From NCBI GenBank assembly GCA_036555845.1, contig DATBKN010000539.1:1-44122 (forward strand): 44,122 nt of DNA, in the 5' to 3' direction. The DNA is from Gemmatimonadaceae bacterium. GTDB lineage: Bacteria > Gemmatimonadota > Gemmatimonadetes > Gemmatimonadales > Gemmatimonadaceae. Positions 1-44,122 of this stretch are shown here, piece by piece (position 1 is the first letter of the stretch; each line of letters opens with the position of its first letter). The notes under the pieces are model-generated. The model did not search any database and was not told the origin of the DNA. It was given only the letters and a program-made list of their open reading frames with translations. A program made the position numbers and the translations under genes.

Positions 1-322
1 ACTCGCCGGTTGTGTCGGCACGCGTGACTCCTCCGTCTCGCGCCACGCGTCCGCTCACGACCTCGAACTTCAGTCTGTCGCCGGTCATGCGGTCATACAC
101 GGCTTCGTCTGTCGCGACGCTTCCCTTGCGGATCGGATTGAAGTAGCGCCTCGCACCGGCCGCCGTTGCCGTCACTTCATATATGATGCGGAACTTGGCC
201 GAGCCGGGCGCGAGCAGCTCGTAACGGGTGTAATGGTCCGCGTCGGTTTGTGGCGTGCGCTGCGCGGCGCCGAGCGCTGGAGCGCCGAATAGCAATAAGC
301 TCGTTAGGACGCGGCGCTTCAT
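1..322 (-). CDS. secreted hypothetical protein, N-terminal part only (3' end lies beyond the window edge)
   Basis: Absent from the ORF track because it runs off the window. Manual minus-strand translation from ATG 322..320 gives MKRRVLTSLLLFGAPALGAAQRTPQTDADHYTRYELLAPGSAKFRIIYEV..., which is signal-peptide-like and open to position 1. Its ATG overlaps the TGA of the upstream gene (ATGA). Confidence 0.55.
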   Translation of the reverse strand, partial: MKRRVLTSLLLFGAPALGAAQRTPQTDADHYTRYELLAPGSAKFRIIYEVTATAAGARRYFNPIRKGSVATDEAVYDRMTGDRLKFEVVSGRVARDGGVTRADTTGE

Positions 323-2262
323 GGGAGCGCGAATGCTTGCAGTTTGGCGCCCGGCCCCGGGCCGCCGGTCGCGATCAGCACGAACTGCTTGCCGGCCTTC
401 GTGCGATATGTCATGGGGTTCGCATAGCCGCGCTGGCCGAGGTCAGTCTGCCAGCGCACATGTCCGTCGTTGCTGTCGATCGCGTACAGCGTGTGGCCAC
501 CGCCAGTGATGAACACGAGACCGCCCTTCGTCGCCAGACCGCCAGGTGCGCCGCTGACGCCTAACGCCGGAGGCAGCTGCACACCGGCGAGAGCTGGATT
601 CCTACGCACGTCCGGCGTGTCACCGATGGGGATGTGCCACTTGTGCTCCCCGGTGTTAAGGTCGATCGCCGTGAGCGTGCCGTACGGCGGTTTGTTCAAC
701 GGCAGCGGAGTCGCGTTGGAATCGCGCTCCGTTCCCTCCGGTCCACCGCTGAGACGCACGCCTAACGAGGAGTTGCGGAGGTCCGCCATGTACGTGTCGT
801 CCACCGTGTCCGACTTCGTGGCCTGCTTGACGAGACGCCACAGACTCGGCGAATTCGACGCCTTTACGAAGAGCGTGTTCGTCTCCGGATCGAACGCCGC
901 TCCGCCCCAGCCCACACCACCGATCGAGCCTGGCATCGTCACAGTGCCCATTTCGCTCGGCGGCGAATACATCGGCCCGGCGACGTATTTGTTCAGCTCA
1001 GCCAACGCCGCGGCTTTGATCTCCGGCGTGTAGTCGAGCACGTCGTCAGGTCCGAATCCCTGCACGGCAACCGGCGCCGGGAGCGACGGGAACGGCTGCG
1101 TCGGCCAGGCGCGCTCGCCAGGCACATCGCTCGCGGGAACGGGACGCTCCTCGATCGGCCAGACGGGTCGCCCGGTTTGCCGATCGAAGACGAAGATCCA
1201 TCCCTGTTTCGTCGGGACGACGACTGCGTCGATGCTGCTGCCGCCGACATTGATCGTCACCAGGTTAGGCGGCGCGGGAAGATCGTAATCCCAGAGCCCG
1301 TGATGCGTGATCTGGTAATGCCAGACTCGCTGCCCGCTGCGCGCGTCCAGGCAAACGATCGACTCGGCGTACAAGTTCGCGCCTAACCGGCGGCCGCCAT
1401 ACCAGTCGTTGCTCGGCGTTCCAACCGGCAGATACAAATAACCGCGCGCGGTATCCACGGTGAACGGCGCCCAAACGTTCGTGTGACCGACGTAGCGCCA
1501 CGACTCTTTTTCCCACGTGGCGTTACCGGAGTCTCCCGGCTCGGGGACCGTCCTGAAGCGCCACATGCGCTTCCCTGTGCGCACGTCGAACGCCTGCACG
1601 TCACCGGGTGGATCGCCCTTGTACACGAGGCGATCTCCAACGCCGTTCCCCACGATCACGAGGTCGTGCCACACGACCGGCGGCGACGTGTTCGTGTAGT
1701 GCCGTTTTTCGACGGGACGCGAGAGATCGCTCGTTAGGTCCACCTCACCGCTGCTGCCGAACGTGGAGATGGGCTGGCCGGTCGCCGCGTTGAGCGCGAT
1801 GAGCCGCCATCTGCTGTTGATGAAGATCCGGCGTTCGGTACCGTCGCTCCACATGGCGACACCGCGATGCACGAAGCCAGTGCCATTGGATGGCTGACCA
1901 GGACGATACGCCTCCGGATCGAACTCCCAGTATTTCGCACCTGTCGTGGGATCGAGCGCCACGACGCGATTGAACGGCGTGCTGAAATACAGCGTGTCGT
2001 TGACCATGATCGGTGTCGTCTGGAACATCCCCGGACGAGCGGCTTTCGTCGAATCGCTTTCCGCGATCGGCTGCTCGCCGGTCTCCCAGGCCCAGGCGCT
2101 CGTCAGGCGCACCACATTGCCGCGATTGATATCCGCGAGCGGCGAGTACTTCATCCCTCCGGGATCACCACCGTATGCCGGCCACTCGACCATTCCGCGC
2201 ACGCTCGGCTGACTACACGCTCCGATCGTGCCCAGCAACACTGCCGCGGCGAGACGCTTCAC
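319..2262 (-). CDS. PQQ-dependent (quinoprotein) sugar/glucose dehydrogenase family, lipoprotein
   Basis: 647-aa ORF with a lipobox-type signal (LLGTIGAC). The EWPAYGGDPGGMKYSPL N-terminal motif and repeated Trp-docking propeller blades are typical of PQQ dehydrogenases. The GTG start overlaps the stop of the next gene (GTGA at 2259-2262). Confidence 0.85.
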   Translation of the reverse strand: MKRLAAAVLLGTIGACSQPSVRGMVEWPAYGGDPGGMKYSPLADINRGNVVRLTSAWAWETGEQPIAESDSTKAARPGMFQTTPIMVNDTLYFSTPFNRVVALDPTTGAKYWEFDPEAYRPGQPSNGTGFVHRGVAMWSDGTERRIFINSRWRLIALNAATGQPISTFGSSGEVDLTSDLSRPVEKRHYTNTSPPVVWHDLVIVGNGVGDRLVYKGDPPGDVQAFDVRTGKRMWRFRTVPEPGDSGNATWEKESWRYVGHTNVWAPFTVDTARGYLYLPVGTPSNDWYGGRRLGANLYAESIVCLDARSGQRVWHYQITHHGLWDYDLPAPPNLVTINVGGSSIDAVVVPTKQGWIFVFDRQTGRPVWPIEERPVPASDVPGERAWPTQPFPSLPAPVAVQGFGPDDVLDYTPEIKAAALAELNKYVAGPMYSPPSEMGTVTMPGSIGGVGWGGAAFDPETNTLFVKASNSPSLWRLVKQATKSDTVDDTYMADLRNSSLGVRLSGGPEGTERDSNATPLPLNKPPYGTLTAIDLNTGEHKWHIPIGDTPDVRRNPALAGVQLPPALGVSGAPGGLATKGGLVFITGGGHTLYAIDSNDGHVRWQTDLGQRGYANPMTYRTKAGKQFVLIATGGPGPGAKLQAFALP

Positions 2263-3476
2263 GGAGTCACTCCGTCGTGTCGCACAACCGTGCCTCCCTT
2301 CATGACGAAGGACACGCGTTTGAGCGCCGTCATGTCAGTGAGCGGGTTGCCGCGCACGGCGATGATGTCGGCCTCGAGCCCAGGCGCGAGGGCGCCGATC
2401 TTCGCAGCCAGGCCTAACGACTCTGCGGCGCGCGATGTCGCCGAGACGAGCGCGTCCGCCGCCGGCTGCCCGCCTTCGTTCACGCGACAAATGAGATCGT
2501 CCACGTTGTGACCGTGTGCGCCGGCCACGGCATCTGTCCCCCACACGAGCTTGAGCCTCGGCGTGCGCGATGCCCGCTTGATGACGTCGACAGCCAGCGG
2601 GATCGCTTTCTCCATCGCGGCGAAACCTTCGGCGTTGTAGTTCCCGATCCCCTCGAAGTAGCGCTTGTTGCCGAGGTAATTGCTGAAGACGAGACCGCAC
2701 TGTGGCGAGAAGTACGTACCGCGCTGCGCCATCAGCTCGAGCACGTCATTCGTCACAAAGACGCCGTGTTCGATCTGGTCACAGCCTGCGAGCACAGCGG
2801 CTTTCACCGCGTCGGCGGCGTGCGCATGCACGAGCACGCGCAACCCTTGCTTGTGCGCCTCGTCGCACGCGGCGTTGAGCTGCTCCGGCGTCATGGTGGC
2901 GCCGCCGCCGTCGCGAATGCTCTTGGATGCAAAAAGCTTCACGAGGTCCGCGCCGCGCGCCTTCATCTCGCGGATGCGAGTGCGCAACTCGTCGGGCGAG
3001 CTGCGTTCGTTGAAGGAGCCTAACGAGGTCAGGATGCGCGGCCCCGCGACGCGCCCGCGGGCGATCGCGTCGCGCAAGTCCGCGTCCTCGGGCGATCCGG
3101 GACTCTGCACCGTCGTAACGCCGCCGCGCAGCGTCGCCATCGCATTGCCGGCCCACGCGAGAGCTTGCACGGCCGGCGAGTCGCCGTCGTCGTTCGTGTG
3201 CAGGCGCTCTTTGCTATTGAGGTACCAGACGATGTGCGCATGCACATCCACGAGACCGGGGAGGAGGGTAACGTCGCCGAGGTCAAAACGCTGGCCGCGG
3301 AAGTCGCGCGGTGCTGCGCCGACCTGAGTGATGCGACCACCGTCGACGATGATGGCGACGTTTTGCTGCAGCTGACCGCGGCCGTCGAACAGGCGATTGG
3401 CAGTGATCAGGATTTGAGCACCGGTCACTGCCGGCAATCCGGCGCCTAACGCGATACCGAAGAGAAGACGGCGCAT
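2259..3476 (-). CDS. metal-dependent amidohydrolase family protein (secreted)
   Basis: 405-aa ORF with a signal peptide. It has the LLPGLVDVHAHI HxH metal-binding motif and later His/Asp ligands typical of the amidohydrolase superfamily. Confidence 0.85.
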   Translation of the reverse strand: MRRLLFGIALGAGLPAVTGAQILITANRLFDGRGQLQQNVAIIVDGGRITQVGAAPRDFRGQRFDLGDVTLLPGLVDVHAHIVWYLNSKERLHTNDDGDSPAVQALAWAGNAMATLRGGVTTVQSPGSPEDADLRDAIARGRVAGPRILTSLGSFNERSSPDELRTRIREMKARGADLVKLFASKSIRDGGGATMTPEQLNAACDEAHKQGLRVLVHAHAADAVKAAVLAGCDQIEHGVFVTNDVLELMAQRGTYFSPQCGLVFSNYLGNKRYFEGIGNYNAEGFAAMEKAIPLAVDVIKRASRTPRLKLVWGTDAVAGAHGHNVDDLICRVNEGGQPAADALVSATSRAAESLGLAAKIGALAPGLEADIIAVRGNPLTDMTALKRVSFVMKGGTVVRHDGVTP

Positions 3477-3533: not shown

Positions 3534-5143
3534 TTCGAAGCTGATGCCCGCCCCGGAAATACTTCCCCGATCTGTGACGCGCTGCGCAACGATAACGCGC
3601 AGAATGTTAGCGTAGCATTGGCACATCCCGCAGTCGGCATCGTCGGCGCGCCGACGACGAACAGATTCTCATGGTCGTGCGTACGTCCGTAGGAATCGAC
3701 GACGCTCTGGCCGGGATCAGCACCCATACGGCATCCGCCGGCTGGATGATCCTGAAAGTCGTCGACGCTTTTGCGCAGGATCCGCCCGTTGCCGGCGCGC
3801 GCGAGACGCTCGAAGAGCTTCGTGATTTCTTCTTCCTGATATGGCCGCAACGTCTTCGATTCTCCGCTGTCGCGCATCCTGACCGCGGGAAGCGGTGTCC
3901 CCCACGGCGTCTTGCGCGAGCTATCGAGCGCCAGCTCGCTCTCGCGCGCGGGGAGCACGTCGTAGTACGAGCGCACCCTCGTCGTCCCCTTCTTCACGCG
4001 CTCGCGCCAGTCGGCAAGAATGCCGTCGCCTAACAAAAGCTCGCCTGAATCGGAACGCAGCCGCGCCTCACGGGCGAAGCTCGATTCCCAGACGCGCAGG
4101 TCGTGACGCAGGTATCTGTCCGTCGACGGCGCTGGCCGCATGAAGGCTTTCGATACCAGCGAGTGCTGCTCGTTGATGCCGGGATAGAGCTCCATCGGCA
4201 GCTCGATGAACGCCTGCACATTGCGGTGCCCGCAGAGATACTTGCCAACGAGCCCTGACGAATTCGCCAGCCCGTCAGGGAAGCGTGAGTCGGCCGACGT
4301 GAGCAGTAAGTACGAGCTCCAAACATAACCGCACGCCACGACGAACGTCTTCGCGCGAATCTGCAGCGGTTCATTCGCCCGATCGCGCGATACAGCTTCA
4401 GCGACTTCGATCTGTTTGGAGCCCTGCTTGGCAGTCAAGCGCCTAACGTGTGTTCGAGAGTACAAACGTACGCGGCCGTTCGCGCGCAACGCGCGCCACG
4501 TCATATCCGGGTTGTACTTCGCTCCTACGGGGCAAATGGGGAAGCACGTGTCGTTGCGGCAGCACGCGCCGCGGCCTTCGCGCGCGACGGAGAGCTTGGC
4601 CGACGGCTGACTCCACATCGGGATGCCGGCGCTCGTCATCCAGTCGCGCAGCATCGTTAGGTTGTACGTCAGCGGCAAGGCGGGCAGCGGGAACGGCTTG
4701 GAGCGCGGGTCCAGCACGCTCGGCCCCTGTTCACCAGCCACGCCCATGCGCTCTTCGGCTTCCTGATAAAACGGATCCAGCTCGTCATATGTCAGCGCCC
4801 AGTCGCTGCCAACGCCATACAACGATCGCACGCGAAAATCTTCCGGAGAGAAGCGGGGGGTGACGCCACCCCAGTGCATCGCGAGCCCGCCCACCTGCAT
4901 CGAGCGGGACTGAATGCCCTCCACGTCGAGGCCATCGAGGTGATCGCGTGGCCACGGACTTTCACCATAGTCGAGGAAGCGCGAACGCAGCGCGTGCAGG
5001 TTCTGCGTCGGCGGCGCTTCATCACCTGTTTCCAGCACGACGATGTCGGCGCGCCGCGTCTCGGCCAGCTTCCACGCGACCATTGCCGCGCTGATGCCCG
5101 AGCCGACGATGCACACGTCGGTCTCGATCACGCGCGCCGTCAT
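3524..5143 (-). CDS. GMC family FAD-dependent oxidoreductase
   Basis: FAD-binding fold DVCIVGSGISAAMVAW at the N-terminus and a C-terminal GMC-type HPAGGCRMG region. The start is placed at the internal ATG 5143..5141, which overlaps the TGA of the upstream small-subunit gene (ATGA). The ORF-track start at 5215 would overlap that gene by 75 nt. Confidence 0.85.
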   Translation of the reverse strand: MTARVIETDVCIVGSGISAAMVAWKLAETRRADIVVLETGDEAPPTQNLHALRSRFLDYGESPWPRDHLDGLDVEGIQSRSMQVGGLAMHWGGVTPRFSPEDFRVRSLYGVGSDWALTYDELDPFYQEAEERMGVAGEQGPSVLDPRSKPFPLPALPLTYNLTMLRDWMTSAGIPMWSQPSAKLSVAREGRGACCRNDTCFPICPVGAKYNPDMTWRALRANGRVRLYSRTHVRRLTAKQGSKQIEVAEAVSRDRANEPLQIRAKTFVVACGYVWSSYLLLTSADSRFPDGLANSSGLVGKYLCGHRNVQAFIELPMELYPGINEQHSLVSKAFMRPAPSTDRYLRHDLRVWESSFAREARLRSDSGELLLGDGILADWRERVKKGTTRVRSYYDVLPARESELALDSSRKTPWGTPLPAVRMRDSGESKTLRPYQEEEITKLFERLARAGNGRILRKSVDDFQDHPAGGCRMGADPGQSVVDSYGRTHDHENLFVVGAPTMPTAGCANATLTFCALSLRSASQIGEVFPGRASASNSP

Positions 5144-5754
5144 GCTGGCCCCGTGGACGCGCGTGCTTCCGCGAGCGGAAGCGGCTTGCGGCCGTTGTGC
5201 GCGAGCGGCCGGCACTTGTTGCGTCCGATACGAGCGCGATAACAGAGATCTGTGGCGTCGCTCGAATCGTAGAAATGCGCGAGCAAACCTAACGCGACGT
5301 GCGGCGCCGAAACGACGTTCGGAAGGCGTTCGCCTTTGAAATCGCTCAGCGCGTCGCGCACGAGCGCCTGGCGCTCGTTCACGTCTAGCGCGGCGAATGT
5401 CTTCTGGTGCTTGCCGCGAGCGGCACGATCCAGCGCGTTGAGCTGTGTCGCCCAGTTTGGAACCGGCGACGGAGCGGCGTAGCCGATCTTTGGAGAGCCG
5501 TACGGATGCAGCAGCTCGGCGCCTTCGCGATAACCGTTCATCCAGCGCCAGAACGCGTCGCTCGCGATCTCGAGCCGCGCCTGTCCCATTTCGCTGGGGA
5601 GGATCGCGGCGCCTAACGCGCGGATCGCGGCTTGCGATGGAATGGCACGCTGTCGCGCACCGCCCAACGCCAGACGTCGGCCCAGAGCGCGGAGGCTCCC
5701 CGGCAATGCCGCGACTGCACTCAACACCCCGACGAATTGTCGCCTTGTGAACAT
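5140..5754 (-). CDS. gluconate 2-dehydrogenase subunit 3-like small subunit with a twin-arginine signal
   Basis: MFTRRQFVGVLSAVAALPG TAT signal. Small subunit genes of this kind typically precede a GMC flavoprotein gene. The start is chosen at the ATG of MFTRRQF, so it is somewhat uncertain. Confidence 0.65.
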   Translation of the reverse strand: MFTRRQFVGVLSAVAALPGSLRALGRRLALGGARQRAIPSQAAIRALGAAILPSEMGQARLEIASDAFWRWMNGYREGAELLHPYGSPKIGYAAPSPVPNWATQLNALDRAARGKHQKTFAALDVNERQALVRDALSDFKGERLPNVVSAPHVALGLLAHFYDSSDATDLCYRARIGRNKCRPLAHNGRKPLPLAEARASTGPA

Positions 5755-5869: not shown

Positions 5870-6409
5870 ATGGAGATCGTGTTACCGAACTGCGTCGTGC
5901 GCGAATTCCGTCCCGGCGACGAGGAAAGTCTCGCCCGGCACGCGAACGACCGCCGGATCTGGCGCAACCTGAAGGACGCATTCCCGCATCCGTATACGCT
6001 GGACCACGCACGCGCCTGGGTTGCGCAGAACCAACACCAACAGCCGCCGCATCACTTCGCGATCGAGGTTGGCGGACAGGTCGTCGGCGGCATCGGGCTC
6101 GAGTTCAAGCCCGACATCTGGCGCTATTCGGCCGAATTCGGCTATTGGCTCTCCCCGGACTACTGGGGACGCGGGATCATGTCCGGCGTGTTGAACGCTG
6201 TCGTGGACTACGCGTTCGCGAGGTTCGACATCAACCGTCTCTGGGCCGGCGCTTTCGACTGGAATCCCGCGTCGGCGCGCGTGCTGGAGAAAGCGGGTTT
6301 CGTCCTGGAGGCGCGTCTAAAGGAGAGCGCCTACAAGGACGGCGTCTTCGTCGATGAGGTGATTTACGCGATTGTGCGGCCTATCGGCCAGGCACGGAAT
6401 CCGGCCTAA
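5870..6409 (+). CDS. GNAT family N-acetyltransferase (RimJ/RimL-like)
   Basis: About 180-aa ORF with typical RimJ/L-type GNAT features (FAIEVGGQVVGGIGL, GYWLSPDYWGRGIM, NPASARVLEKAGF). Its TAA stop lies inside a CCTAAC motif that is shared with the convergent gene. Confidence 0.85.
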   Translation: MEIVLPNCVVREFRPGDEESLARHANDRRIWRNLKDAFPHPYTLDHARAWVAQNQHQQPPHHFAIEVGGQVVGGIGLEFKPDIWRYSAEFGYWLSPDYWGRGIMSGVLNAVVDYAFARFDINRLWAGAFDWNPASARVLEKAGFVLEARLKESAYKDGVFVDEVIYAIVRPIGQARNPA

Positions 6410-7560
6410 CGAACACCGGCGCAGAGCACGGCCATCGCCGGATCCGTCGTCTGGCAGCGTCCTGTCGCACCCACCTTCTGAACCGCCGGAGCGCTCCACA
6501 CGGGGCGCCAGCGCTTGGTGCTGCCGCGGCTGGGGCTGTTCGTCCAGCGGGCGCGCTCTCCGCGCACGTCGATGTGAGCGAAGGACCCACTCGGACCAAC
6601 AGCGTGATAGACGCCGACGCCGCCCACGAGCTCGGGGTAGCGCAGCTCCACCTTCTCCACGGCGCGCTGGATCACGTTGGCGTCGCCGATGTCGACGCGC
6701 CCGTCGCGATTGAGGTCGTCCATCCGGCCGTTTTTGTCGTTGTCGATGATGATGTCAGCCGCGTCGCCGAACTGATGCCGGCTGTGCTGCGCCATCGACC
6801 CTTCCACGGCACCTAACGAATTGTAGTACGGGTGCCGGAAGCCGGAGAGGACTTCCACATGCCCCGCCGATACGCCCGACGCCTCCAGCGTCTGCAGGAC
6901 GAGCTCCAGCTTGTCGAGAAGCTCTTCGCGCAGGACCACATACTTGGGCCAGACGTCGCGTTGGTCGTGCGTGATGAAGTTGTAAAGCATGAAGTGCTCG
7001 GAGAGCTGCGTGAACTGATTCTCCGGCGTCACCTCGATGAACCCTTCGGGATTCTCGTAATTCCACGCCATCTTGCGATGCTCTGCCGGCCAAAAGCCGA
7101 CGTGGTAGCCTTTTACGTAACGCCCGACCTTCTCGCGCCACGGCAGCATCGTCACAAAGGAAAACGTGAACTCGGCATCCTCGGCGGAGGCATTCATCTC
7201 GCGCACTCCCGGACCAACGGCCTTATCGCCGAAGCGGTCGGCCAGGACCGGGTACGCCGCGACTTCGTCGGAGAGGAGCAGCCTAACGCGCACCGCCCCG
7301 CTGCGGCCGAAAAGCGAATCACCGCGGACGACCGAGCCGCCCGCTGTGCGATGATGGATATTGGGGATGTTGACCAACTCGGCGCGCGGAGCCGCTGGCG
7401 CGGGTTTGTCGCCAGCCAGCAACTCGCGGCCAAAGAGCAGGCTGCCCCCGCCCAACGGAGCGAGGACGCCGAATGCAATGAGTCCCTTCCGCAGCGCGGG
7501 AGGGAACGACCGGTTCAGGAGCCCCATCATTCGAGGGACGAACCGGTGCGGGCCTGGCAA
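6406..7560 (-). CDS. DUF882 / peptidase M15A-like protein with an acidic Ca-binding-like insertion
   Basis: C-terminal half SGFRHPYYNSLGAVEGSMAQHSRHQFGDAADI ... GGVGVY ... FAHIDVRGERARW matches the YcbK/DUF882 (M15) zinc D,D-peptidase pattern. It is interrupted by DNDKNGRMDDLNRDGRVDIGD. The N-terminal region has a hydrophobic anchor. Confidence 0.65.
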   Translation of the reverse strand: MPGPHRFVPRMMGLLNRSFPPALRKGLIAFGVLAPLGGGSLLFGRELLAGDKPAPAAPRAELVNIPNIHHRTAGGSVVRGDSLFGRSGAVRVRLLLSDEVAAYPVLADRFGDKAVGPGVREMNASAEDAEFTFSFVTMLPWREKVGRYVKGYHVGFWPAEHRKMAWNYENPEGFIEVTPENQFTQLSEHFMLYNFITHDQRDVWPKYVVLREELLDKLELVLQTLEASGVSAGHVEVLSGFRHPYYNSLGAVEGSMAQHSRHQFGDAADIIIDNDKNGRMDDLNRDGRVDIGDANVIQRAVEKVELRYPELVGGVGVYHAVGPSGSFAHIDVRGERARWTNSPSRGSTKRWRPVWSAPAVQKVGATGRCQTTDPAMAVLCAGVR

Positions 7561-7692: not shown

Positions 7693-7998
7693 TTGGCTCA
7701 CGTCGCATTCGCTGCATCCACACCTGCTGTGGCAAAGACAGTTCGACCGCGCGATCGCTTTTTGGACGCGTTGGCGGGCGTATGCATCATCTCCGGCGTG
7801 GCACTCTTTCTGTTTGCGCGCCGCACCCTGACGCACATTGCGACCGGCGGACTGACGCTCCCGGCCAGCGGTCTCACGCACGTCGCGTATACCGACTCCG
7901 TCGTCTTGCGTACGCGCGTCGGCCTCTGGCTTGTTGTCGTCGGCGCGACGCTGGCCGTCGCGTCAGCGATCAGCCACCGCTTTCGGCGCAGCGCCTAA
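7693..7998 (+). CDS. small membrane protein, hypothetical
   Basis: 101-aa ORF with two hydrophobic helices. The TTG start is preceded by GGAGG at 7682-7686, and the TAA stop lies inside a CCTAAC motif. Confidence 0.5.
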   Translation: MAHVAFAASTPAVAKTVRPRDRFLDALAGVCIISGVALFLFARRTLTHIATGGLTLPASGLTHVAYTDSVVLRTRVGLWLVVVGATLAVASAISHRFRRSA

Positions 7999-12970: not shown

Positions 12971-13089
12971 GCTGCACACGAAGCGTGACGACGGACTTGA
13001 GCAGCACGATTTTCTCGTGACGAGGCAACGCAGTAGACAGCCATTTCGCTCGAAAAGTGGGAACGGCCGCACCGACTGCGCGGATCGAC

Positions 13090-29551: not shown

Positions 29552-29590
29552 CGATAGCCTAACGAAACCACATACTCGAGACTAATAGCC

Positions 29591-37564: not shown

Positions 37565-38494
37565 ATGATTATTCGTTCCAAGTCCAAGAACGACATCGTC
37601 AGCTCCGAAATCACGTCGGAGTCTGCCTACGTCAACCGACGCCAGTTCCTGAAGGACACCGGGCTTATCAGCTTGACCGCCGGGGGGATTCTGGCTGCCT
37701 GCCGTGAAGAGGCGTCGGCGGCGCATACACAGGACCTCAAGGCGGAGCAGACGCCGTACGAGGACGTCACGAGCTACAACAATTTCTACGAGTTCGGGAC
37801 CGACAAAGAGGATCCCAAAGCCAACGCTCAGCAATTCAAGACGAAGCCGTGGAGCGTGAAGGTCGAAGGGCTCGTGAGCAAGCCGGCCACATACCAGCTG
37901 GAAGATTTCATCAAGCCGTACAAGCTCGAAGAGCGGATCTATCGACACCGCTGCGTCGAAGCGTGGTCCATGGTGATTCCGTGGCTGGGCTTCCCGATGT
38001 CCGATTTGATCAAGCGCGTGGAGCCATTAGGGTCGGCCAAGTACATCGAGTTCACCACGCTGCTGGATCCGAAACAGATGCCGGGTCAGCGGCTGCCGTA
38101 TCTCGAGTGGCCGTACGTGGAAGGTCTGCGTCTCGACGAGGCGATGCATCCGCTCGCGATATTTGCCGTGGGGTTATACGGCAAGACGCTGCCTAACCAG
38201 AACGGCGCGCCTCTCCGGCACATCGTACCGTGGAAGTATGGCTTCAAGGGCTGCAAGTCGATCGTGCGCATTCGATTCACGGACAAGGAACCGCGCACGG
38301 CGTGGAATATCGCGGCGCCGCAGGAGTACGGTTTCTATGCGAATGTGAATCCCGAGGTGGATCATCCGCGCTGGAGCCAGGCGACTGAGCGGCGCGTGGG
38401 CGAATTCCGCAGACGTAAGACGTTGATGTTCAACGGGTACGCCGATCAGGTGGCGAGCCTGTACTCGGGAATGGACCTGCGGAAGCTCTACTAG
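37565..38494 (+). CDS. msrP: protein-methionine-sulfoxide reductase catalytic subunit MsrP (YedY)
   Basis: The start [10 protein letters not shown]...[13 protein letters not shown] carries a TAT signal. The YNNFYEFG and [16 protein letters not shown] molybdopterin-domain motifs are characteristic of MsrP. Confidence 0.9.
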
Positions 38495-39234
38495 TGGGGG
38501 TTGGGGCGCGGGGCGCGACGGACCAAGCGGGAGTTCAAGAGTCCGAACGACAGCGGGGGGCCCCCCCCGCTGTTCAATCTGCGGCAACTTCGCCGCCACG
38601 CGTTAACCGAAAACGCGCCAGCATTCCCAAAGAGCCGCCTTACCTTCACGCGGTCATCATCGTGCTGTGCTGCCTCCCATTCATCTGGGGAGGTTTGGCC
38701 CTCTATTCCGACGCCTTCCGTGGCACTAGCTACCTCACTGCGGAACCTGTCAAAGAGATCGAACATTACACCGGGAAGTGGATACTCCGCTTCCTCGCGC
38801 TTACTCTAGCGATCACGCCCGCCATCGCCATCACGCGATTGGGATGGCTCGTCCGCTATCGGCGCACCTTCGGTCTCTTCGCGTTCGGCTACGCGTGCAC
38901 CCACTTCCTGCTGTACCTGACGCTCGATCTGCAGCTCGCCTTCTCGGACATCTGGGAAGACATCAGCAAGCGCATTTACATCACCATTGGATTCACTGCG
39001 TTGCTGTTGCTGGTACCCCTCGCGCTAACATCAACCAAGGCCTCGATCAGACGGCTCGGCGGCAAACGCTGGAACGCGTTGCATCGCCTGATCTACGTCA
39101 CCTGCGTGTTGGGTGTCATTCATTTTTGGATGTCGGTCAAGCGCGACGTCACGTCGCCGATTCTCTTTTCGCTGCTCTTCGCCACGTTGCTCGGCTGGCG
39201 CCTCTTTCGCGCCAGACGTTCGCGCGCTGCCTAA
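38494..39234 (+). CDS. msrQ: protein-methionine-sulfoxide reductase heme-binding membrane subunit MsrQ (YedZ)
   Basis: PFIWGGLALY...PVKEIEHYTGKWILRFLALTLAITP aligns with the MsrQ N-terminal region, and multiple TM helices carry conserved His. The start is uncertain. The only upstream in-frame start is GTG 38494, which adds about 45 non-membrane residues and spans a GC hairpin. GTG near 38662 is an alternative. Confidence 0.8.
   Translation: MGVGARGATDQAGVQESERQRGAPPAVQSAATSPPRVNRKRASIPKEPPYLHAVIIVLCCLPFIWGGLALYSDAFRGTSYLTAEPVKEIEHYTGKWILRFLALTLAITPAIAITRLGWLVRYRRTFGLFAFGYACTHFLLYLTLDLQLAFSDIWEDISKRIYITIGFTALLLLVPLALTSTKASIRRLGGKRWNALHRLIYVTCVLGVIHFWMSVKRDVTSPILFSLLFATLLGWRLFRARRSRAA
38550..38573 (+). 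other. GC-rich palindrome between msrP and the membrane core of msrQ
   Basis: ACAGCGGGGGG CC CCCCCCGCTGT, a 10-11 bp stem with no U-tract. Confidence 0.6.
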
Positions 39235-40595
39235 CGCCACTTCTCGCGGCGAGCATCGCCTGCGCCGATTCCACGGCGACGACGCTCGCGCCGGCTGTAC
39301 CTGAAACCGAGCTCTCCGCCGGCACGGCAACTGTATTAGACGCATCCGGCCGCGCCTTCCAGCTGCCGATCCCCACGCTCGTCGGCACGCGGCTCGAGCG
39401 TCACACGCTCGGCGACTCGCTCTTCAGTCTGGGATTCCTCGACGGCCTCACGGCATCGCCGACTGCGCCTAACGTGGGATTGGGTCCCCTGTTCAACAAT
39501 ACGTCCTGCTTCGCGTGTCACGAGCAGAACGGCCGCGGGCAGCCGCCGCTAGCGCCGCGCGCCTATCGCGGGATGCTCTTCCGTCTGAGCGTCCCGCCGA
39601 TCTTCGGCGACGACCCTCCGCGGCCGGTGCCGAGCTTCGGCGGCCAGCTGCAAAACCGCGCCGTCGCCGGCTTTGCCGCCGAAGGGACCGTCGACATCAC
39701 ACTGGAACGGGTGACGGGTCAGTTCCAGGACGGCACGACCTACGAGCTGCAGCGTCCCACGTATCGCATCGCCTCGCCGTACGTCGAAATGCCGCCTAAC
39801 GTGCAGCTCTCGCCGCGCATCGCGCCGCAAATCGTGGGGCTCGGCCTCCTCGAAGCGGTGCCCGACCCGGAGATCCTCATGCGCGCGGATCCCAACGATC
39901 GCGACGGCGACGGCATCTCAGGAAAGCCGAACGTTGTATTCGGCGGCATCACTGGAGAACGAAAGCTCGGTCGCTTCGGACACAAGGCCAGCACTGCCTC
40001 GCTGCTGATTCAGACGGCCACGGCATATAACGAGGATGTCGGAGTCACGTCGCCCCTTCTACCCACAGAGAATTGTGCGCTACAGCATCCCATTTGCGGC
40101 CCGCACGCTCCCGACATCACGCTCGACCACGTCCAGATCGTTGCCTTCTACACACGCACACTGGCGGTTCCCGCGCGGCGCAACGTGCGCGACACCGACG
40201 TCAAACGCGGCGCCGAGCTTTTCACCCGCGCGGGATGCTCGGCGTGCCACACGCCGACGCTTCATACCGACGCGACAAATGTGGAGCCTGAGCTGGCACA
40301 CCTAACGATCCACCCGTACAGCGATCTTCTGCTGCACGATATGGGACCGGACCTCTCCGACGGGCGTCCCGACTTCCGCGCGTCCGGAAGCGAATGGCGC
40401 ACGCCGCCGCTCTGGGGAATCGGACTTTCCGGCTTCGTCACCGGCCACACGCGCTTCCTCCATGACGGGCGAGCCCGCAATCTGGAGGAAGCGGTGTTAT
40501 GGCACGGCGGTGAAGCGCAGCGAGCGCGCGATTTCTACCGCAGTCTCAGCAAGAACGAACGCGACGCGCTGCTGAAGTTTCTGAGCTCGCTCTGA
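39126..40595 (+). CDS. di-heme c-type oxidoreductase, DUF1111 family (thiol-oxidoreductase/peroxidase-like) lipoprotein
   Basis: Two CxxCH motifs (CFACH and CSACH) and a conserved C-terminal WRTPPLWG...FLHDGRARNLEEAVLWHGGEA. A lipobox LLAASIAC lies just after the msrQ stop. The true start is unclear (TTG 39126 or CTG 39195). The ORF-track start at 38778 overlaps msrQ for over 450 nt and is discounted. Confidence 0.75.
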   Translation: MDVGQARRHVADSLFAALRHVARLAPLSRQTFARCLTPLLAASIACADSTATTLAPAVPETELSAGTATVLDASGRAFQLPIPTLVGTRLERHTLGDSLFSLGFLDGLTASPTAPNVGLGPLFNNTSCFACHEQNGRGQPPLAPRAYRGMLFRLSVPPIFGDDPPRPVPSFGGQLQNRAVAGFAAEGTVDITLERVTGQFQDGTTYELQRPTYRIASPYVEMPPNVQLSPRIAPQIVGLGLLEAVPDPEILMRADPNDRDGDGISGKPNVVFGGITGERKLGRFGHKASTASLLIQTATAYNEDVGVTSPLLPTENCALQHPICGPHAPDITLDHVQIVAFYTRTLAVPARRNVRDTDVKRGAELFTRAGCSACHTPTLHTDATNVEPELAHLTIHPYSDLLLHDMGPDLSDGRPDFRASGSEWRTPPLWGIGLSGFVTGHTRFLHDGRARNLEEAVLWHGGEAQRARDFYRSLSKNERDALLKFLSSL

Positions 40596-40607
40596 CGCGA
40601 CCGGAGC

Positions 40608-41093
40608 CTAACGCGGCTGACCGACCACGAAAACCTGCTGGCTCACATTCGCGAGAGCAGCAGGCATGTCGACGCCGTCGAGCCAGCGAACCGTGCGGCG
40701 TAACCCGTTCGCGCGAACCATGATGCGGTGATCGCGCCGATCGCAGCACGTGTTACTTGGGACATACTCCGCGTCGAGTGACGCGAATTCCTTGCTTGCT
40801 GCGGCCGTGAAAAGTGCATCCACTTCCGCGGCGGTCATCGTGCGGATCACACGCGCCGGAAAGACGCACTCCTCTTTCAGTTGCTCACAGAGCTCGGGTG
40901 CGCCAGCGGAAACGACGCCGGTGGCGCTATCGACACTGTGCGCGAACTTCATGTACGCAATCCCACCCACGCCGAAGTACTCGATCCGCGCCGCCCTGGT
41001 ATCCGGCTCCAAAAGATTGTTCGACGTTGCACATGCTAGGGCGGCGCCTGCTGCACTCAGTGCTAGGATTTTCGAAACGAATCTGAACGACAT
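40608..41093 (-). CDS. hypothetical lipoprotein
   Basis: 161-aa ORF with MSFRFVSKILALSAAGAALAC (a lipobox). The TAG stop lies inside the motif. Confidence 0.55.
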   Translation of the reverse strand: MSFRFVSKILALSAAGAALACATSNNLLEPDTRAARIEYFGVGGIAYMKFAHSVDSATGVVSAGAPELCEQLKEECVFPARVIRTMTAAEVDALFTAAASKEFASLDAEYVPSNTCCDRRDHRIMVRANGLRRTVRWLDGVDMPAALANVSQQVFVVGQPR

Positions 41094-41127: not shown

Positions 41128-42315
41128 GTGTTGCCACGCACCGACTACGACACACTCGTTGTCACATCCCCCGGACTCGAAGACGTAACGCAGCGCGAAC
41201 TCGCCGCGCTAGGCGTCACGCCGAGCGCACGAGCGGAGCCTGGCATCATCCCCGTGTGCGTTCCCCAGAGGACGTTATACACCATGAACTTGCACCTGCG
41301 CACCGCGAGTCGCATAACGGTGCTGGGGGCCAACTTCCGCGCGCGCACGTTCGCCGAACTGGAGCGCCGAGCCAAGGCCGTACCCTGGGATGAGTGGCTC
41401 CGGAATGACACGCGAGTGCGACTGCGCGTTACGTGTCGTAAGTCACGCCTATATCACTCGGACGCCGTTGCGGAACGCGTGGCCGGCGCCATCGCCGCAC
41501 GCACGCGAGCCCTGGTCTCTGCCGACAATTCGGCGGATGACGATGACCCGTCGGCACAACAGCTGATTCTCGTTAGGCTTCTGCGCGATGACTGCACGAT
41601 TCGCATCGATACGTCAGGCGCGCACCTGCATCGCCGTGGCTATCGTCAGGCAGTGGCCAAAGCTCCGCTGCGCGAAACGCTCGCCGCCGCGATGCTACTC
41701 GCCGCGAAGTGGAATATCGGCGCTCCTCTGATCGACCCGTTCTGTGGTTCAGGCAGCATCGCCATCGAAGCAGCGCTCCTCGCACGCAACATCGCGCCCG
41801 GCATCCGACGCGAGTTCGCTTTCATGAACTGGCCGACGTTCGATAGCTCCGCATGGAGCGCGACGCTCGAGCACGCGCGAACACACGAACGCAATGCCGC
41901 GCCCGCTCCGATCATCGCCGCAGACCGTGACGAAGGAGCGATCGAGGCAACTCGCGCAAACGCGCAAAGGGCCGGCGTGCTCGCTGACATCGACGCACGT
42001 TGTCAGCCGCTCTCCGCACTCGAGCCCCCGGCAACGCCAGGCTGGCTCGTCAGCAATCCACCGTACGGAGTGCGAGTCGGTGAGCGGCACCGTCTGCGCG
42101 ATCTTTATGCAGTGATAGGCCGGTTGAGCCGCGAGCGCCTGCGCGATTGGCACATCGCGCTGCTGAGCGCACACCCGGAACTGGACGCCCAACTGGCACT
42201 GCCGCTGGTGGAGACCTTCAGAACGACCAACGGAGGACTCAACGTGCGGCTAGTCTCGCGTGTACCTTTGGAACCGCCAGCTGGCGGCGCGACGGCAGCA
42301 ACGATATCGCGTTAG
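41128..42315 (+). CDS. THUMP-domain class I SAM-dependent RNA methyltransferase (RlmL/RlmK-like, COG0116 type)
   Basis: SAM motif I DPFCGSGSIAIEAA and motif IV SNPPYG, with an N-terminal THUMP-like region. The TAG stop lies inside the motif. Confidence 0.8.
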   Translation: MLPRTDYDTLVVTSPGLEDVTQRELAALGVTPSARAEPGIIPVCVPQRTLYTMNLHLRTASRITVLGANFRARTFAELERRAKAVPWDEWLRNDTRVRLRVTCRKSRLYHSDAVAERVAGAIAARTRALVSADNSADDDDPSAQQLILVRLLRDDCTIRIDTSGAHLHRRGYRQAVAKAPLRETLAAAMLLAAKWNIGAPLIDPFCGSGSIAIEAALLARNIAPGIRREFAFMNWPTFDSSAWSATLEHARTHERNAAPAPIIAADRDEGAIEATRANAQRAGVLADIDARCQPLSALEPPATPGWLVSNPPYGVRVGERHRLRDLYAVIGRLSRERLRDWHIALLSAHPELDAQLALPLVETFRTTNGGLNVRLVSRVPLEPPAGGATAATISR

Positions 42316-42337
42316 GCGACGCCGGCAGCAGCTTGCG

Positions 42338-43603: not shown

Positions 43604-43655
43604 GCAGGACACTCATTCGATAGCTCGGCTATGAGCGCGGGTTAGATTCCGCCAC

Positions 43656-44122
43656 ATGAGTGCTTCGTCCTCCAGCGTCTTCAACGACGCGTACATCGCC
43701 GAGCTTTTCGAGAATTACCAGCGCGACCCCAATTCGGTCGACGCGTCCTGGCGCCAGCTCTTTCGTCTGGCACAGGCGCTCGGCGCGGGGATGGCGCCAC
43801 GCCAGGGCGGCGGGGAGACGACGGTCTCCGCCGAGCCGGCCTATTTGCGGAAGGTGGCCGGAGCGGCCGCGTTGATCGATGGCATCCGGCATTACGGCCA
43901 TCTGGCCGCGCAGCTCGACCCGTTAGGCGCCAGGCCGCCGGGTGCTGCCGAGCTGACTCCCGAGTTCTATGGCATCACCACGGAGGACTTGGCGCACGTA
44001 CCGGCAATCGCGTTAGGCTTCGATCTCGGTTCCGCGGCCGACGTCGCCGACCGCCTGCGTCAGATCTATTCGGGAACGATCGGCTACGAGTTCATGCACC
44101 TGGAAGAAGAAGCCGAGCGCTT
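43656..44122 (+). CDS. sucA: 2-oxoglutarate dehydrogenase E1 component, N-terminal part (continues beyond the window)
   Basis: Absent from the ORF track because it is open at the window end. Manual translation from ATG 43656 gives MSASSSSVFNDAYIAELFENYQRDPNSVDASWRQLF ... IRHYGHLAAQLDPLG ... TIGYEFMHLEEEAER, the classic SucA N-terminus. Confidence 0.9.
   Translation, partial: MSASSSSVFNDAYIAELFENYQRDPNSVDASWRQLFRLAQALGAGMAPRQGGGETTVSAEPAYLRKVAGAAALIDGIRHYGHLAAQLDPLGARPPGAAELTPEFYGITTEDLAHVPAIALGFDLGSAADVADRLRQIYSGTIGYEFMHLEEEAER

Follow-up and report, generated by a model that had tools for sequence, protein, structure and literature searches.

What could cause one short, asymmetric word to be written again and again into the genes of an ordinary bacterial chromosome? 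The question is raised by a stretch of 44,122 bp with a G+C content of 63.5% (contig DATBKN010000539.1 of the Gemmatimonadaceae assembly GCA_036555845.1; the whole stretch is hereafter called the window), in which the word YGTTAGGY, recognised by its six-base core GTTAGG or the complement CCTAAC, occurs 96 times. No earlier description of the word was found, as full-text literature searches for the octamer, its reverse complement and its 7-mers returned only primers and unrelated uses, which agrees with a preliminary description of this DNA, made from the letters alone, in which it was not recognised as a known element. It is a hyper-abundant genomic word in a new phylum, its closest counterparts being the DNA uptake sequences (DUS) of Neisseriaceae and the uptake signal sequences (USS) of Pasteurellaceae, and it is the densest among DUS/USS, the cyanobacterial highly iterated palindrome HIP1 and itself; the preliminary description had also pointed to these systems for its density and distribution. 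It is proposed here, tentatively and by analogy, that YGTTAGGY may be the lineage-specific "self" word of one Gemmatimonadaceae group, acting as a DNA-uptake-enhancing sequence.

Sequence of the motif and its over-representation

Copies are located throughout by the coordinates of the 6-bp core, with GTTAGG taken as the + and CCTAAC as the − orientation. On the + strand GTTAGG is found 51 times and CCTAAC 45 times, while the full octamer occurs 29 times as CGTTAGGC and 27 times as its reverse complement GCCTAACG, which makes CGTTAGGC the top-ranked octamer of the window (56 copies, compared with 36 for the runner-up). The totals of 96 hexamers and 56 octamers had been given in the preliminary description and were reproduced exactly, as were all of its coordinates save 35005, which should be 35006. 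The flanks are biased in the manner described there, with C exceeding T on both sides: the core is preceded by C in 74 copies and by T in 13, and followed by C in 74 and by T in 14. Beyond these two positions only weak, codon-related preferences and no conserved longer flank are seen, and one-mismatch variants of the core are rare and only mildly enriched. The motif can be written as YGTTAGGY, its 6-bp core being strict and CGTTAGGC its optimum.

From base composition alone about 17 hexamers and 1.8 octamers would be expected in the window. In 200 dinucleotide-preserving shuffles, 6.3 ± 2.4 hexamers (maximum 14) and 1.06 ± 1.05 octamers (maximum 5) were obtained, and 500 synonymous-codon shuffles of the coding sequences (CDS) gave 7.9 ± 2.7 hexamers and 1.75 octamers, where the actual CDS hold 87 and 49, respectively, this second control being conservative because the shuffled codon pool retains the TTA codons of the motif itself. 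Both the dinucleotide- and the codon-preserving controls stay far below the observed counts, which exceed the shuffles about 15-fold (hexamer) and about 50-fold (octamer); the excess claimed earlier is real, and its size had been under-estimated at 6-fold and 30-fold, respectively. The resulting density is one hexamer per 460 bp (2.2 per kb) and one octamer per 790 bp, with 1–6 copies per 2 kb along the whole window and no obvious island within it. The octamer is not a palindrome of the HIP1 class, its reverse complement being GCCTAACG.

Placement within genes

About 90% of the copies lie in coding DNA, a share equal to the coding fraction, and there is no enrichment in intergenic DNA or in terminator-like inverted pairs. 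Only four copies are strictly intergenic, as had been counted before, and the 8-bp unit, lying mostly within CDS, differs from the longer palindromic units found between genes that define repetitive extragenic palindromic (REP) elements, bacterial interspersed mosaic elements and miniature inverted-repeat transposable elements. Copies also reach into stop codons: of the 35 gene stops scored, 10 (8 TAG and 2 TAA) fall within a copy, the third reading frame of the motif being the one that holds TAG or TAA.

Raw counts within genes amount to 59 sense and 26 antisense copies, and the commonest frame is nnG-TTA-GGn, with 47 copies. The word goes against codon preference, as had been noticed: 47 of the 70 TTA codons in the window fall inside G-TTA-GG and 49 of 135 Leu-Gly pairs are written TTA-GGN, whereas outside the motif TTA makes up less than 2% of Leu codons. 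The encoded dipeptides are inflated relative to the expectation from composition, by 1.22-fold for Leu-Gly, 1.23-fold for Val-Arg and 1.76-fold for Pro-Asn. The raw sense excess arises because Ala/Ser/Thr/Pro-Leu-Gly is common. When copies are divided by all positions whose amino-acid sequence would allow the word, the octamer occupies 25 of 53 sites in the sense frame xCG-TTA-GGC (47%) and 11 of 35 in C-GTT-AGG-C (31%), compared with 8 of 18 in the antisense frame G-CCT-AAC-G (44%) and 5 of 17 in xGC-CTA-ACG (29%). For the hexamer, occupancy is 26% in sense and 24% in antisense (P = 0.60), and 27% versus 24% by absolute strand (P = 0.62), the strands here being those of the window, with no replichore assigned.

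The motif is a feature of the DNA itself and does not signal through peptides, codons or RNA. The 59:26 excess had hinted at a link to transcription or RNA, a reading rejected after this normalisation, and a structured-RNA reading was dropped on finding no Rfam match at the gathering threshold and no tRNA in the window. More generally, it is scarcely credible that the word is a signal at the level of protein, codon pairs or RNA, or an artefact of assembly or synthesis: the sense excess and the dominant Leu-Gly frame would speak for the former, yet the excess is gone once peptide availability is taken into account, the antisense classes are equally occupied, and copies also stand between genes and at stop codons. 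As for the latter, the same copies recur at orthologous positions in independent assemblies from different projects, therefore an assembly artefact is ruled out; the check had been envisaged in the preliminary description.

Stop codon usage is itself of note. The stops of the 35 complete genes scored comprise 20 TAG, 10 TGA and 5 TAA, a lead for TAG that is unusual at 63.5% G+C, and with the motif-borne stops excluded TAG (12) still exceeds TGA (10). Two convergent gene pairs, at 6405–6410 and 10354–10359, overlap by four bases in such a way that one copy provides both stops, TAA on one strand and TAG on the other.

Spacing and interference between neighbouring copies

The spacing had been described as irregular, from 118 to about 1000 bp, a view that is not borne out. 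Gaps between adjacent copies range from 87 to 1611 bp, and their coefficient of variation is 0.646, compared with 0.987 for random placement (0.1 percentile of random, 0.739); the random median of the minimum gap is 3 bp, and a minimum of at least 87 bp was reached in none of 5000 simulations. Occupancy of compatible sites depends on the distance to the nearest other copy, being 3% (4/121) at 100 bp or less, 23% at 100–200 bp and about 50% beyond 200 bp (Mann-Whitney P = 4e-15). Gaps were also pooled over six loci, namely the window, the part of L003 that is non-homologous to it, L037, L126, L166 and L099, of which L126 and L099 encode phage proteins and L166 gave only a weak match to a terminase small subunit. 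In this set, 3 gaps were shorter than 50 bp against 23.4 expected, 8 fell in 50–100 bp against 20.6, and 79 in 200–400 bp against 48. Copies are spaced significantly more evenly than by chance and exclude one another over about 100 bp, and the process that maintains the word works on segments of a few hundred bp, in which one copy is enough, and not on each potential site separately. The interference between neighbours and the even spacing therefore argue against a methylation- or repair-linked drive that acts site by site.

Such a drive would consist of a methyltransferase paired with a mismatch endonuclease of the very-short-patch (VSP) type, or of some other biased repair, which makes and restores a word that itself has no function. 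It would act on host and phages alike, it would maintain sites and so produce apparent conservation, it overrides codon preference, and a mobile methyltransferase/repair gene pair would fit the patchy distribution described below. It is nevertheless quite improbable, since a site-by-site process cannot account for an occupancy of 3% near and about 50% far from another copy, nor for the evenness; the enrichment of one-mismatch variants is only mild, new copies depart from the homologous sequence at several positions simultaneously, and the VSP-type effects known to us are small by comparison with the enrichment seen here.

Distribution, conservation and turnover in related genomes

The distribution was followed in 80 genome loci, fetched with the RlmL-type methyltransferase of the window as anchor. 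Enrichment in related genomes, which the preliminary description had proposed as a check, was found in L001 to L003 and L037, most other loci being at background. L002 (83% protein identity) holds 16 copies in 8.5 kb and L003 (70% protein identity) 43 copies in 19.8 kb, 20 of them in the 8.2 kb past the end of the window, while 21 kb of the more distant L037 hold 28 hexamers, of which 22 are full octamers. Weak but clear enrichment is seen in L055, L057, L007 and L011; about 60 other Gemmatimonadota loci and all the Chloroflexi, Myxococcota and other loci fetched are at background density. The motif is genome-wide, lineage-specific and patchy.

At the level of single positions, all 10 window copies comparable with L002 (83% nucleotide identity) are conserved exactly, against a background of 0.34 for all hexamers (P about 2e-5), and 14 of 23 are conserved in L003 (75% identity), against a background of 0.20 (P about 2e-5); only 0.6–3% of control k-mers are as conserved as the motif. 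In the comparison with L003, 9 copies are found in the window only and 8 in L003 only, and such non-shared copies differ from the homologous sequence at 1–5 of the 8 positions, typically through a change from CTG or CTC to TTA or through an amino-acid replacement. None of the 5 alignable window copies is common to the distant motif-rich L037. The sites are long-lived, yet they are gained and lost independently between lineages.

Phage contigs carrying the word

IMG/VR was scanned for two octamers 240–270 bp apart, a search whose results include chance hits, and contigs with dispersed copies at host-like density were recovered. L126, which encodes virion structural proteins, has 29 copies in 7.8 kb, none closer to the next than 95 bp; L202, 90% identical to it, shares 11 of 12 copies, and 78 more distant relatives of this phage (42–44% protein identity, G+C 0.40–0.58) have none. 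L099, a tailed-phage contig, encodes a terminase, a portal and a major head protein and holds 11–14 octamers in 12 kb with the extended consensus TTCGTTAGGC, and L157, with a tape-measure and a minor tail protein, is motif-rich as well. L126/L202, L099 and L157 represent at least three unrelated sets of structural genes whose relatives lack the enrichment. L099 (IMGVR_UViG_3300036819_000104) is identical to L282, that is, DATAVH010000167.1 of GCA_036267855.1, a contig binned in a metagenome-assembled genome (MAG) of Chthoniobacterales (Verrucomicrobiota); relatives of its terminase are annotated as Chthoniobacteraceae or Verrucomicrobiota, and the related phage contigs L281 and L283–L285 show no motif enrichment. 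Either this bin is wrong or the word also occurs outside Gemmatimonadota.

Likeness to the integron core site

GTTAGGC/GCCTAAC matches the core-site consensus of integrons (R'' = RYYYAAC and R' = GTTRRRY; PMC12901181) perfectly, including the Y at position 7 (C in 74 copies, T in 14). The consensus is that of the R box of attC and attI, and the real attC sites recovered here end in exactly the words GTTAGGC and GCCTAAC. The IMG/VR scan also returned contigs with strictly alternating GCCTAAC/GTTAGGC pairs 50–120 bp apart (L149, L141, L105, L115, L190, L155, L111 and L100). In L149, positions 1–4484, the pairs are attC ends (GCCTAACCCGCC.TTCAAGCGGAC ... GCCGCTTAA..GGCGTTAGGC), which identifies an integron gene-cassette array within a viral contig collection, and from the shared pattern the other seven contigs are presumably arrays of the same kind; tRNA arrays were considered as the source of these alternating pairs and discarded, as ARAGORN found none.

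It is very improbable, all the same, that the window copies are boxes recognised by an integron-type or other tyrosine recombinase. Besides the fit of YGTTAGGY to GTTRRRY at every position and the retrieval of a genuine cassette array by an octamer scan, this reading can draw on the finding that integrases can place cassettes at genomic attG sites, beyond attC and attI (Loot et al. 2024, as cited in PMC12901181). Whereas attC sites are imperfect hairpins of 57–141 nt that bound the cassettes of arrays beside an integrase, the window copies are lone boxes inside ordinary chromosomal genes, without a hairpin partner: 1 of 95 adjacent pairs has attC geometry (CCTAAC...GTTAGG within 40–160 bp), and it spans a gene start. 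Neither cassette arrays nor an integrase were found in the window, insertion at thousands of intragenic boxes would be harmful, and a chance match to one of many short consensuses is possible. No paper linking GTTAGGC to the integron core site was found in the literature, and the identity is probably coincidental.

Interpretation

Sequence-specific tags for DNA uptake are known, according to the papers on uptake sequences, only from Neisseriaceae and Pasteurellaceae, both families of proteobacteria. DUS (with the core GCCGTCTGAA) and USS (with the core AAGTGCGGT) are, like the word of the window, short, non-palindromic, present in both orientations and tens of fold above expectation; they exist in thousands of copies without orientation bias, and one sequence is bound per fragment (PMC1939737). 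Even spacing has been reported for USS (Karlin et al., as cited in PMC1939737), and uptake sequences inflate the encoded peptides and show reading-frame preferences (PMC2817400), as the present word does with its few tolerated frames. Its sites are likewise kept between relatives and turned over at depth, with new copies too divergent to be the product of single point mutations, which parallels the stringency with which DUS are conserved, the birth of new DUS by multi-nucleotide change and their higher numbers where conversion tracts are shorter (Treangen et al., PMC2397512). Limitation to particular lineages is also shared, and accumulation in phages of the host may be; temperate Pasteurellaceae phages accumulate USS up to the level of the host, whereas large lytic phages do not (PMC6776037). 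The computable properties agree with those reported for DUS/USS, and it is by this resemblance that an uptake-type self-tag is ranked first. Over-representation and the other properties of the word were computed here, whereas uptake bias, competence and a reader protein are suggested by the analogy.

Under this proposal, a component of the DNA-uptake machinery of bacteria that are presumably naturally transformable would bind the word, and fragments from relatives that bear it would be preferentially taken up and recombined. Variants that create or improve a copy would be over-transmitted and existing copies kept. One copy per fragment would be enough and a second nearby would bring no gain, leading to an even spacing of 200–400 bp; an uptake drive with one copy per fragment therefore predicts the interference between neighbours. 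Coding constraints would set the positions, at Leu-Gly, Val-Arg, Pro-Asn and Leu-Thr pairs and at stop codons, and phages that spend time integrated in these genomes would gain the word by the same route.

Several observations weigh against an uptake sequence. The likeness is one of sequence properties, in a different phylum (Gemmatimonadota) and with a different sequence; the word is shorter and 2–3 times denser, given that USS and DUS occur about once per 1.1–1.2 kb (1471 and 1965 copies; PMC1939737). Unlike DUS/USS, it is enriched neither in intergenic DNA nor in terminator-like inverted pairs, and the copies per kb in phage contigs equal or exceed those in the host (3.7 in L126, compared with 2.2 in the window). 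DUS often stand as close inverted pairs, which sits badly with the short-range exclusion in the window, and to our knowledge a near-absolute exclusion below about 90 bp has not been described for DNA-uptake-enhancing sequences. In a single-gene neighbour-joining tree motif-rich and motif-poor genomes are interleaved, so that the word is patchy within Gemmatimonadaceae, and the Verrucomicrobiota bin of L099 is a further difficulty unless it is wrong. Neither natural transformation nor DNA uptake sequences were found documented for Gemmatimonadota in the literature, and genes for a type IV pilus or pseudopilus, ComEA, ComEC or DprA were not found within the 44-kb window. Finally, HIP1, which does not function in uptake, is just as hyper-abundant, conserved and located in coding regions.

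HIP1 (GCGATCGC, cyanobacteria), an octamer over-represented 15–300-fold, with about one copy per gene or more, mostly genic and conserved beyond controls, is the model for the next reading. As a HIP1-like element, the word would be the binding site of an abundant intracellular DNA-binding protein concerned with nucleoid organisation, repair, segregation or replication, kept by ordinary per-site selection; each bound complex would cover or service roughly 100–400 bp, and phages in the same cytoplasm would use the factor. Its footprint would account naturally for the exclusion under about 90–100 bp and the preferred spacing of 200–400 bp, the enrichment of about 50-fold falls in the HIP1 range, the motif is strand-neutral, phage structural-gene contigs carry it at or above host density, and conservation of sites beyond background is the argument of Xu et al. 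for selection on HIP1. Even so, this origin is rather unlikely. HIP1 is a palindrome linked to methyltransferase targets (GATC, CGATCG), whereas the present word is asymmetric; there is no known candidate for the protein; selection would have to see every one of about 10,000 sites per genome; the two motif-rich clades have no positions in common, for which ongoing drive is a better fit than fixed functional sites; and the patchiness among close relatives would demand repeated gain or loss of a core chromosomal function. The periodicity reported for HIP1 is at 10–90 kb, beyond the scale of the window, whereas for the present word short-range evenness and interference were measured, neither of which, as far as we know, has been noted for HIP1.

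The word might also resemble Chi (GCTGGTGG of E. coli) in marking DNA as self, by taming or stopping a RecBCD/AddAB-type or other translocating defence nuclease, so that word-rich DNA is repaired and not degraded; alleles with a copy would be spared resection, giving a conversion bias, and phages would copy the word to escape degradation. Chi and the FtsK-orienting polar sequences (KOPS) are, like it, asymmetric, over-represented 8-nt words that could mark self and that phages would gain from copying, 8 nt being the typical length of Chi. The enrichment of at least three unrelated sets of phage structural genes, and not of their relatives, is what mimicry of a protective host signal predicts, and diminishing returns from a nearby second site could yield interference. 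This is an unlikely reading nonetheless. The Chi sequences known so far are strand-polar, with a skew to the leading strand, whereas neither absolute strand is favoured over 44 kb after coding correction; Chi and KOPS are replication-skewed, modestly enriched and spaced at one per several kb, while the present word is about 10 times denser, with an enrichment and density far above any known Chi, and accumulation in temperate phages is also explained by uptake. Put more broadly, YGTTAGGY could be no uptake tag but a sequence that some DNA-processing machine inside the cell recognises or stops at (a nuclease that resects ends, a defence nuclease that translocates or a recombinase reading boxes of the GTTRRRY type), and a chromosome-wide self mark that phages must copy; this is improbable, and under it a mobile reader gene would explain both the patchiness within Gemmatimonadaceae and the phage contig binned in Verrucomicrobiota. 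Among the roles put forward in the preliminary description, a self-DNA tag is the best fit and an intracellular binding site is compatible with the data, whereas a site-by-site methylation or repair drive is opposed by neighbour interference.

HIP1 is still unexplained after decades, and, next to it and DUS/USS, the Gemmatimonadaceae word represents a third case, in a soil lineage without cultured members from a phylum that has been little studied, with a very clean signature: about half of the codon-compatible sites filled, interference between neighbours and the word present in phages. Should it be an uptake sequence, natural transformation with a preference for self would be inferred in Gemmatimonadaceae, and the word would help to assign phages and MAG contigs to their hosts and to design DNA with which these bacteria could be manipulated genetically. 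Should it not be, the interference and the presence of copies in phages render the word a tractable subject for learning what such words do.

Coordinates of the copies

The 96 copies are collected in Table 1, in which conservation refers to exact-position comparison with the related Gemmatimonadaceae loci L003 and L002.

Table 1. Copies of the motif in the window, given by the coordinates of the 6-bp core
Form	Core	Strand	Location	Frame and residues	Remarks
core, 8-mer CGTTAGGA	303..308	+	CDS antisense	C-CTA-AC Leu-Thr	
octamer CGTTAGGC	560..565	-	CDS sense	G-TTA-GG Leu-Gly	
octamer CGTTAGGC	761..766	-	CDS sense	G-TTA-GG Leu-Gly	
core, GGTTAGGC	1264..1269	+	CDS antisense	CCT-AAC Pro-Asn	
core, GGTTAGGC	1382..1387	-	CDS sense	G-TTA-GG Leu-Gly	
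core, CGTTAGGT	1733..1738	+	CDS antisense	C-CTA-AC Leu-Thr	
octamer CGTTAGGC	2413..2418	-	CDS sense	G-TTA-GG Leu-Gly	
octamer CGTTAGGC	3019..3024	-	CDS sense	G-TTA-GG Leu-Gly	
octamer CGTTAGGC	3445..3450	-	CDS sense	G-TTA-GG Leu-Gly	
core, TGTTAGGC	4029..4034	-	CDS sense	G-TTA-GG Leu-Gly	
octamer CGTTAGGC	4442..4447	-	CDS sense	GTT-AGG Val-Arg	
core, CGTTAGGT	4656..4661	+	CDS antisense	C-CTA-AC Leu-Thr	
core, CGTTAGGT	5288..5293	-	CDS sense	G-TTA-GG Leu-Gly	
octamer CGTTAGGC	5612..5617	-	CDS sense	G-TTA-GG Leu-Gly	
octamer CGTTAGGC	6405..6410	-	TAA stop of CDS 5861-6409(+) and TAG stop of CDS 6406-7560(-)		
core, CGTTAGGT	6812..6817	-	CDS sense	G-TTA-GG Leu-Gly	
octamer CGTTAGGC	7282..7287	-	CDS sense	GTT-AGG Val-Arg	
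octamer CGTTAGGC	7994..7999	-	TAG stop of CDS 7995-8363(-)		
octamer CGTTAGGC	8686..8691	+	CDS antisense	CCT-AAC Pro-Asn	
octamer CGTTAGGC	9136..9141	+	CDS antisense	CCT-AAC Pro-Asn	
core, CGTTAGGT	9840..9845	+	CDS sense	GTT-AGG Val-Arg	
octamer CGTTAGGC	10112..10117	+	CDS sense	G-TTA-GG Leu-Gly	
core, AGTTAGGC	10354..10359	-	TAA stop of CDS 9498-10358(+) and TAG stop of CDS 10355-11161(-)		
core, CGTTAGGT	10533..10538	-	CDS sense	G-TTA-GG Leu-Gly	
core, AGTTAGGC	11221..11226	-	intergenic		
octamer CGTTAGGC	11810..11815	-	CDS antisense	CCT-AAC Pro-Asn	
core, CGTTAGGA	12206..12211	-	CDS antisense	CCT-AAC Pro-Asn	
octamer CGTTAGGC	12460..12465	+	CDS sense	G-TTA-GG Leu-Gly	
core, CGTTAGGG	12775..12780	+	CDS sense	G-TTA-GG Leu-Gly	
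octamer CGTTAGGC	12966..12971	+	TAG stop of CDS 12083-12970(+)		
core, TGTTAGGC	13334..13339	-	CDS sense	G-TTA-GG Leu-Gly	
core, CGTTAGGT	13681..13686	+	overlap of called CDS 13090-13758(-) and 13543-14691(+)		
core, TGTTAGGT	14827..14832	+	CDS sense	G-TTA-GG Leu-Gly	
octamer CGTTAGGC	15004..15009	+	CDS sense	G-TTA-GG Leu-Gly	
octamer CGTTAGGC	15250..15255	-	TAG stop of CDS 15251-16285(-)		
octamer CGTTAGGC	15492..15497	-	CDS sense	G-TTA-GG Leu-Gly	
core, TGTTAGGG	15579..15584	-	CDS sense	G-TTA-GG Leu-Gly	closest pair in window, 87 bp
octamer CGTTAGGC	16050..16055	-	CDS sense	G-TTA-GG Leu-Gly	
octamer CGTTAGGC	16725..16730	-	CDS sense	GTT-AGG Val-Arg	
octamer CGTTAGGC	17010..17015	+	CDS antisense	CCT-AAC Pro-Asn	position also occupied in L055
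core, TGTTAGGC	17212..17217	-	CDS sense	G-TTA-GG Leu-Gly	
core, CGTTAGGT	17553..17558	+	intergenic		
octamer CGTTAGGC	18692..18697	+	CDS sense	GTT-AGG Val-Arg	
octamer CGTTAGGC	19231..19236	+	CDS sense	G-TTA-GG Leu-Gly	
octamer CGTTAGGC	19842..19847	-	CDS antisense	C-CTA-AC Leu-Thr	
octamer CGTTAGGC	20166..20171	+	CDS sense	G-TTA-GG Leu-Gly	
octamer CGTTAGGC	20342..20347	-	CDS antisense	C-CTA-AC Leu-Thr	
octamer CGTTAGGC	20760..20765	+	CDS sense	GTT-AGG Val-Arg	
core, TGTTAGGC	20996..21001	+	CDS sense	G-TTA-GG Leu-Gly	
octamer CGTTAGGC	21400..21405	-	CDS sense	G-TTA-GG Leu-Gly	
octamer CGTTAGGC	22246..22251	+	CDS sense	G-TTA-GG Leu-Gly	
octamer CGTTAGGC	23234..23239	+	CDS sense	GTT-AGG Val-Arg	
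octamer CGTTAGGC	23527..23532	+	CDS sense	G-TTA-GG Leu-Gly	
octamer CGTTAGGC	23845..23850	+	CDS sense	G-TTA-GG Leu-Gly	
core, TGTTAGGC	24052..24057	+	CDS sense	G-TTA-GG Leu-Gly	
core, CGTTAGGA	24411..24416	+	TAG stop of CDS 22163-24415(+); also antisense in CDS 24375-25478(-)		
octamer CGTTAGGC	24627..24632	+	CDS antisense	CCT-AAC Pro-Asn	
core, CGTTAGGT	25845..25850	+	CDS sense	G-TTA-GG Leu-Gly	
core, CGTTAGGT	25968..25973	+	CDS sense	G-TTA-GG Leu-Gly	
core, TGTTAGGC	26635..26640	+	CDS sense	G-TTA-GG Leu-Gly	
octamer CGTTAGGC	26893..26898	+	CDS sense	G-TTA-GG Leu-Gly	
core, CGTTAGGT	27683..27688	-	CDS antisense	CCT-AAC Pro-Asn	
octamer CGTTAGGC	28027..28032	+	CDS sense	G-TTA-GG Leu-Gly	
octamer CGTTAGGC	28823..28828	+	CDS sense	GTT-AGG Val-Arg	
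octamer CGTTAGGC	28996..29001	+	CDS sense	G-TTA-GG Leu-Gly	
core, CGTTAGGG	29398..29403	-	CDS antisense	C-CTA-AC Leu-Thr	
octamer CGTTAGGC	29558..29563	-	intergenic		
core, TGTTAGGG	30835..30840	+	CDS sense	G-TTA-GG Leu-Gly	
octamer CGTTAGGC	31150..31155	-	CDS antisense	C-CTA-AC Leu-Thr	
octamer CGTTAGGC	31859..31864	+	CDS sense	GTT-AGG Val-Arg	
core, AGTTAGGC	31984..31989	+	CDS sense	G-TTA-GG Leu-Gly	
octamer CGTTAGGC	32735..32740	-	CDS antisense	CCT-AAC Pro-Asn	
core, TGTTAGGC	33427..33432	+	CDS sense	Leu-Gly	conserved in L003
octamer CGTTAGGC	33593..33598	-	intergenic		conserved in L003
core, TGTTAGGC	33749..33754	+	CDS sense	Leu-Gly	absent in L003
core, CGTTAGGT	34046..34051	-	CDS antisense	Leu-Thr	absent in L003
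octamer CGTTAGGC	34371..34376	+	CDS sense	Val-Arg	conserved in L003
octamer CGTTAGGC	34619..34624	+	CDS sense	Leu-Gly	absent in L003
octamer CGTTAGGC	35006..35011	-	CDS antisense	Leu-Thr	conserved in L003
octamer CGTTAGGC	35408..35413	+	CDS sense	Leu-Gly	conserved in L003
core, TGTTAGGC	35951..35956	+	CDS sense	Leu-Gly	conserved in L003
octamer CGTTAGGC	36220..36225	+	CDS sense	Leu-Gly	conserved in L003
core, AGTTAGGC	36643..36648	+	CDS sense	Leu-Gly	absent in L003
core, TGTTAGGC	36782..36787	-	CDS antisense	Pro-Asn	conserved in L003
core, AGTTAGGG	36904..36909	-	CDS antisense	Leu-Thr	absent in L003
core, GGTTAGGC	37354..37359	+	CDS sense	Leu-Gly	absent in L003
core, GGTTAGGC	38192..38197	-	CDS antisense	Pro-Asn	conserved in L002 and L003
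octamer CGTTAGGC	39230..39235	-	CDS antisense		conserved in L002, absent in L003
octamer CGTTAGGC	39468..39473	-	CDS antisense	Pro-Asn	conserved in L002 and L003
octamer CGTTAGGC	39795..39800	-	CDS antisense	Pro-Asn	conserved in L002, absent in L003
core, CGTTAGGT	40301..40306	-	CDS antisense	Leu-Thr	conserved in L002 and L003
octamer CGTTAGGC	40607..40612	-	TAG stop of CDS 40608-41093(-)		conserved in L002
octamer CGTTAGGC	41572..41577	+	CDS sense	Val-Arg	conserved in L002 and L003
octamer CGTTAGGC	42311..42316	+	TAG stop of CDS 41128-42315(+)		conserved in L002 and L003
octamer CGTTAGGC	43922..43927	+	CDS sense	Leu-Gly	conserved in L002 and L003
octamer CGTTAGGC	44012..44017	+	CDS sense	Leu-Gly	conserved in L002, absent in L003

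Gene content of the window and other repeated words

The window is ordinary chromosomal DNA. It encodes a pyrroloquinoline quinone (PQQ) dehydrogenase, amidohydrolases, an ABC-2 exporter, a sigma-70 family factor, the RlmL-type methyltransferase, a histidine kinase and the start of sucA. The homologues of the methyltransferase and the contigs that carry them place the lineage in Gemmatimonadaceae, where it is known only from soil and sediment MAGs and metagenomes. An exact look-up with the protein encoded at 319–2262(−) of the window matched no record. Between 26561 and 37420, a SusC-like TonB-dependent receptor, a SusD-like protein, two tandem paralogous dipeptidyl peptidase IV (DPP-IV)/S9 peptidases with 68% nucleotide identity over about 950 bp and an amidohydrolase stand together, and the cluster looks like a peptide-utilisation locus of the polysaccharide utilisation locus (PUL) type of Bacteroidota in a Gemmatimonadaceae genome.

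Other over-represented octamers in Gemmatimonadota loci were considered as possible "dialects" of the word and dropped, as they proved to be tandem repeats or paralogous coding segments with long shared flanks. The former comprise (GAAGCGA)n in L061 (JACKDA010000005.1; about 25–30 octamer hits in 21 kb) and L049, (GCACCCTGA)n in L011, and TACGACC and purine-rich repeats in L070, while conserved paralogous coding segments are found in L023, L035, L036, L062 and L075. The long tandem arrays of L061, L049, L011 and L070 imitate hyper-abundant words in k-mer statistics. In L025 (JANNSD010000030.1), the palindromic 10-mer GCACATGTGC occurs 10 times in 21 kb with partly conserved CG-rich flanks, perhaps as a REP- or HIP-like element that belongs to another lineage of Gemmatimonadota.

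Among the viral contigs, ARAGORN reports a 700-nt permuted "tmRNA*" at 2899–3598 of the motif-rich L166, which overlaps open reading frames and is most likely a false positive. L090 (IMGVR_UViG_3300023212_000464, a 118-kb viral contig with a G+C of 0.41) carries 11 copies of CCGTTAGGCGA in the same orientation, 112–419 bp apart, and L195 carries 13 copies of CCGTTAGGTCC at multiples of 9, probably in a repetitive coding region; both words seem unrelated to that of Gemmatimonadaceae.

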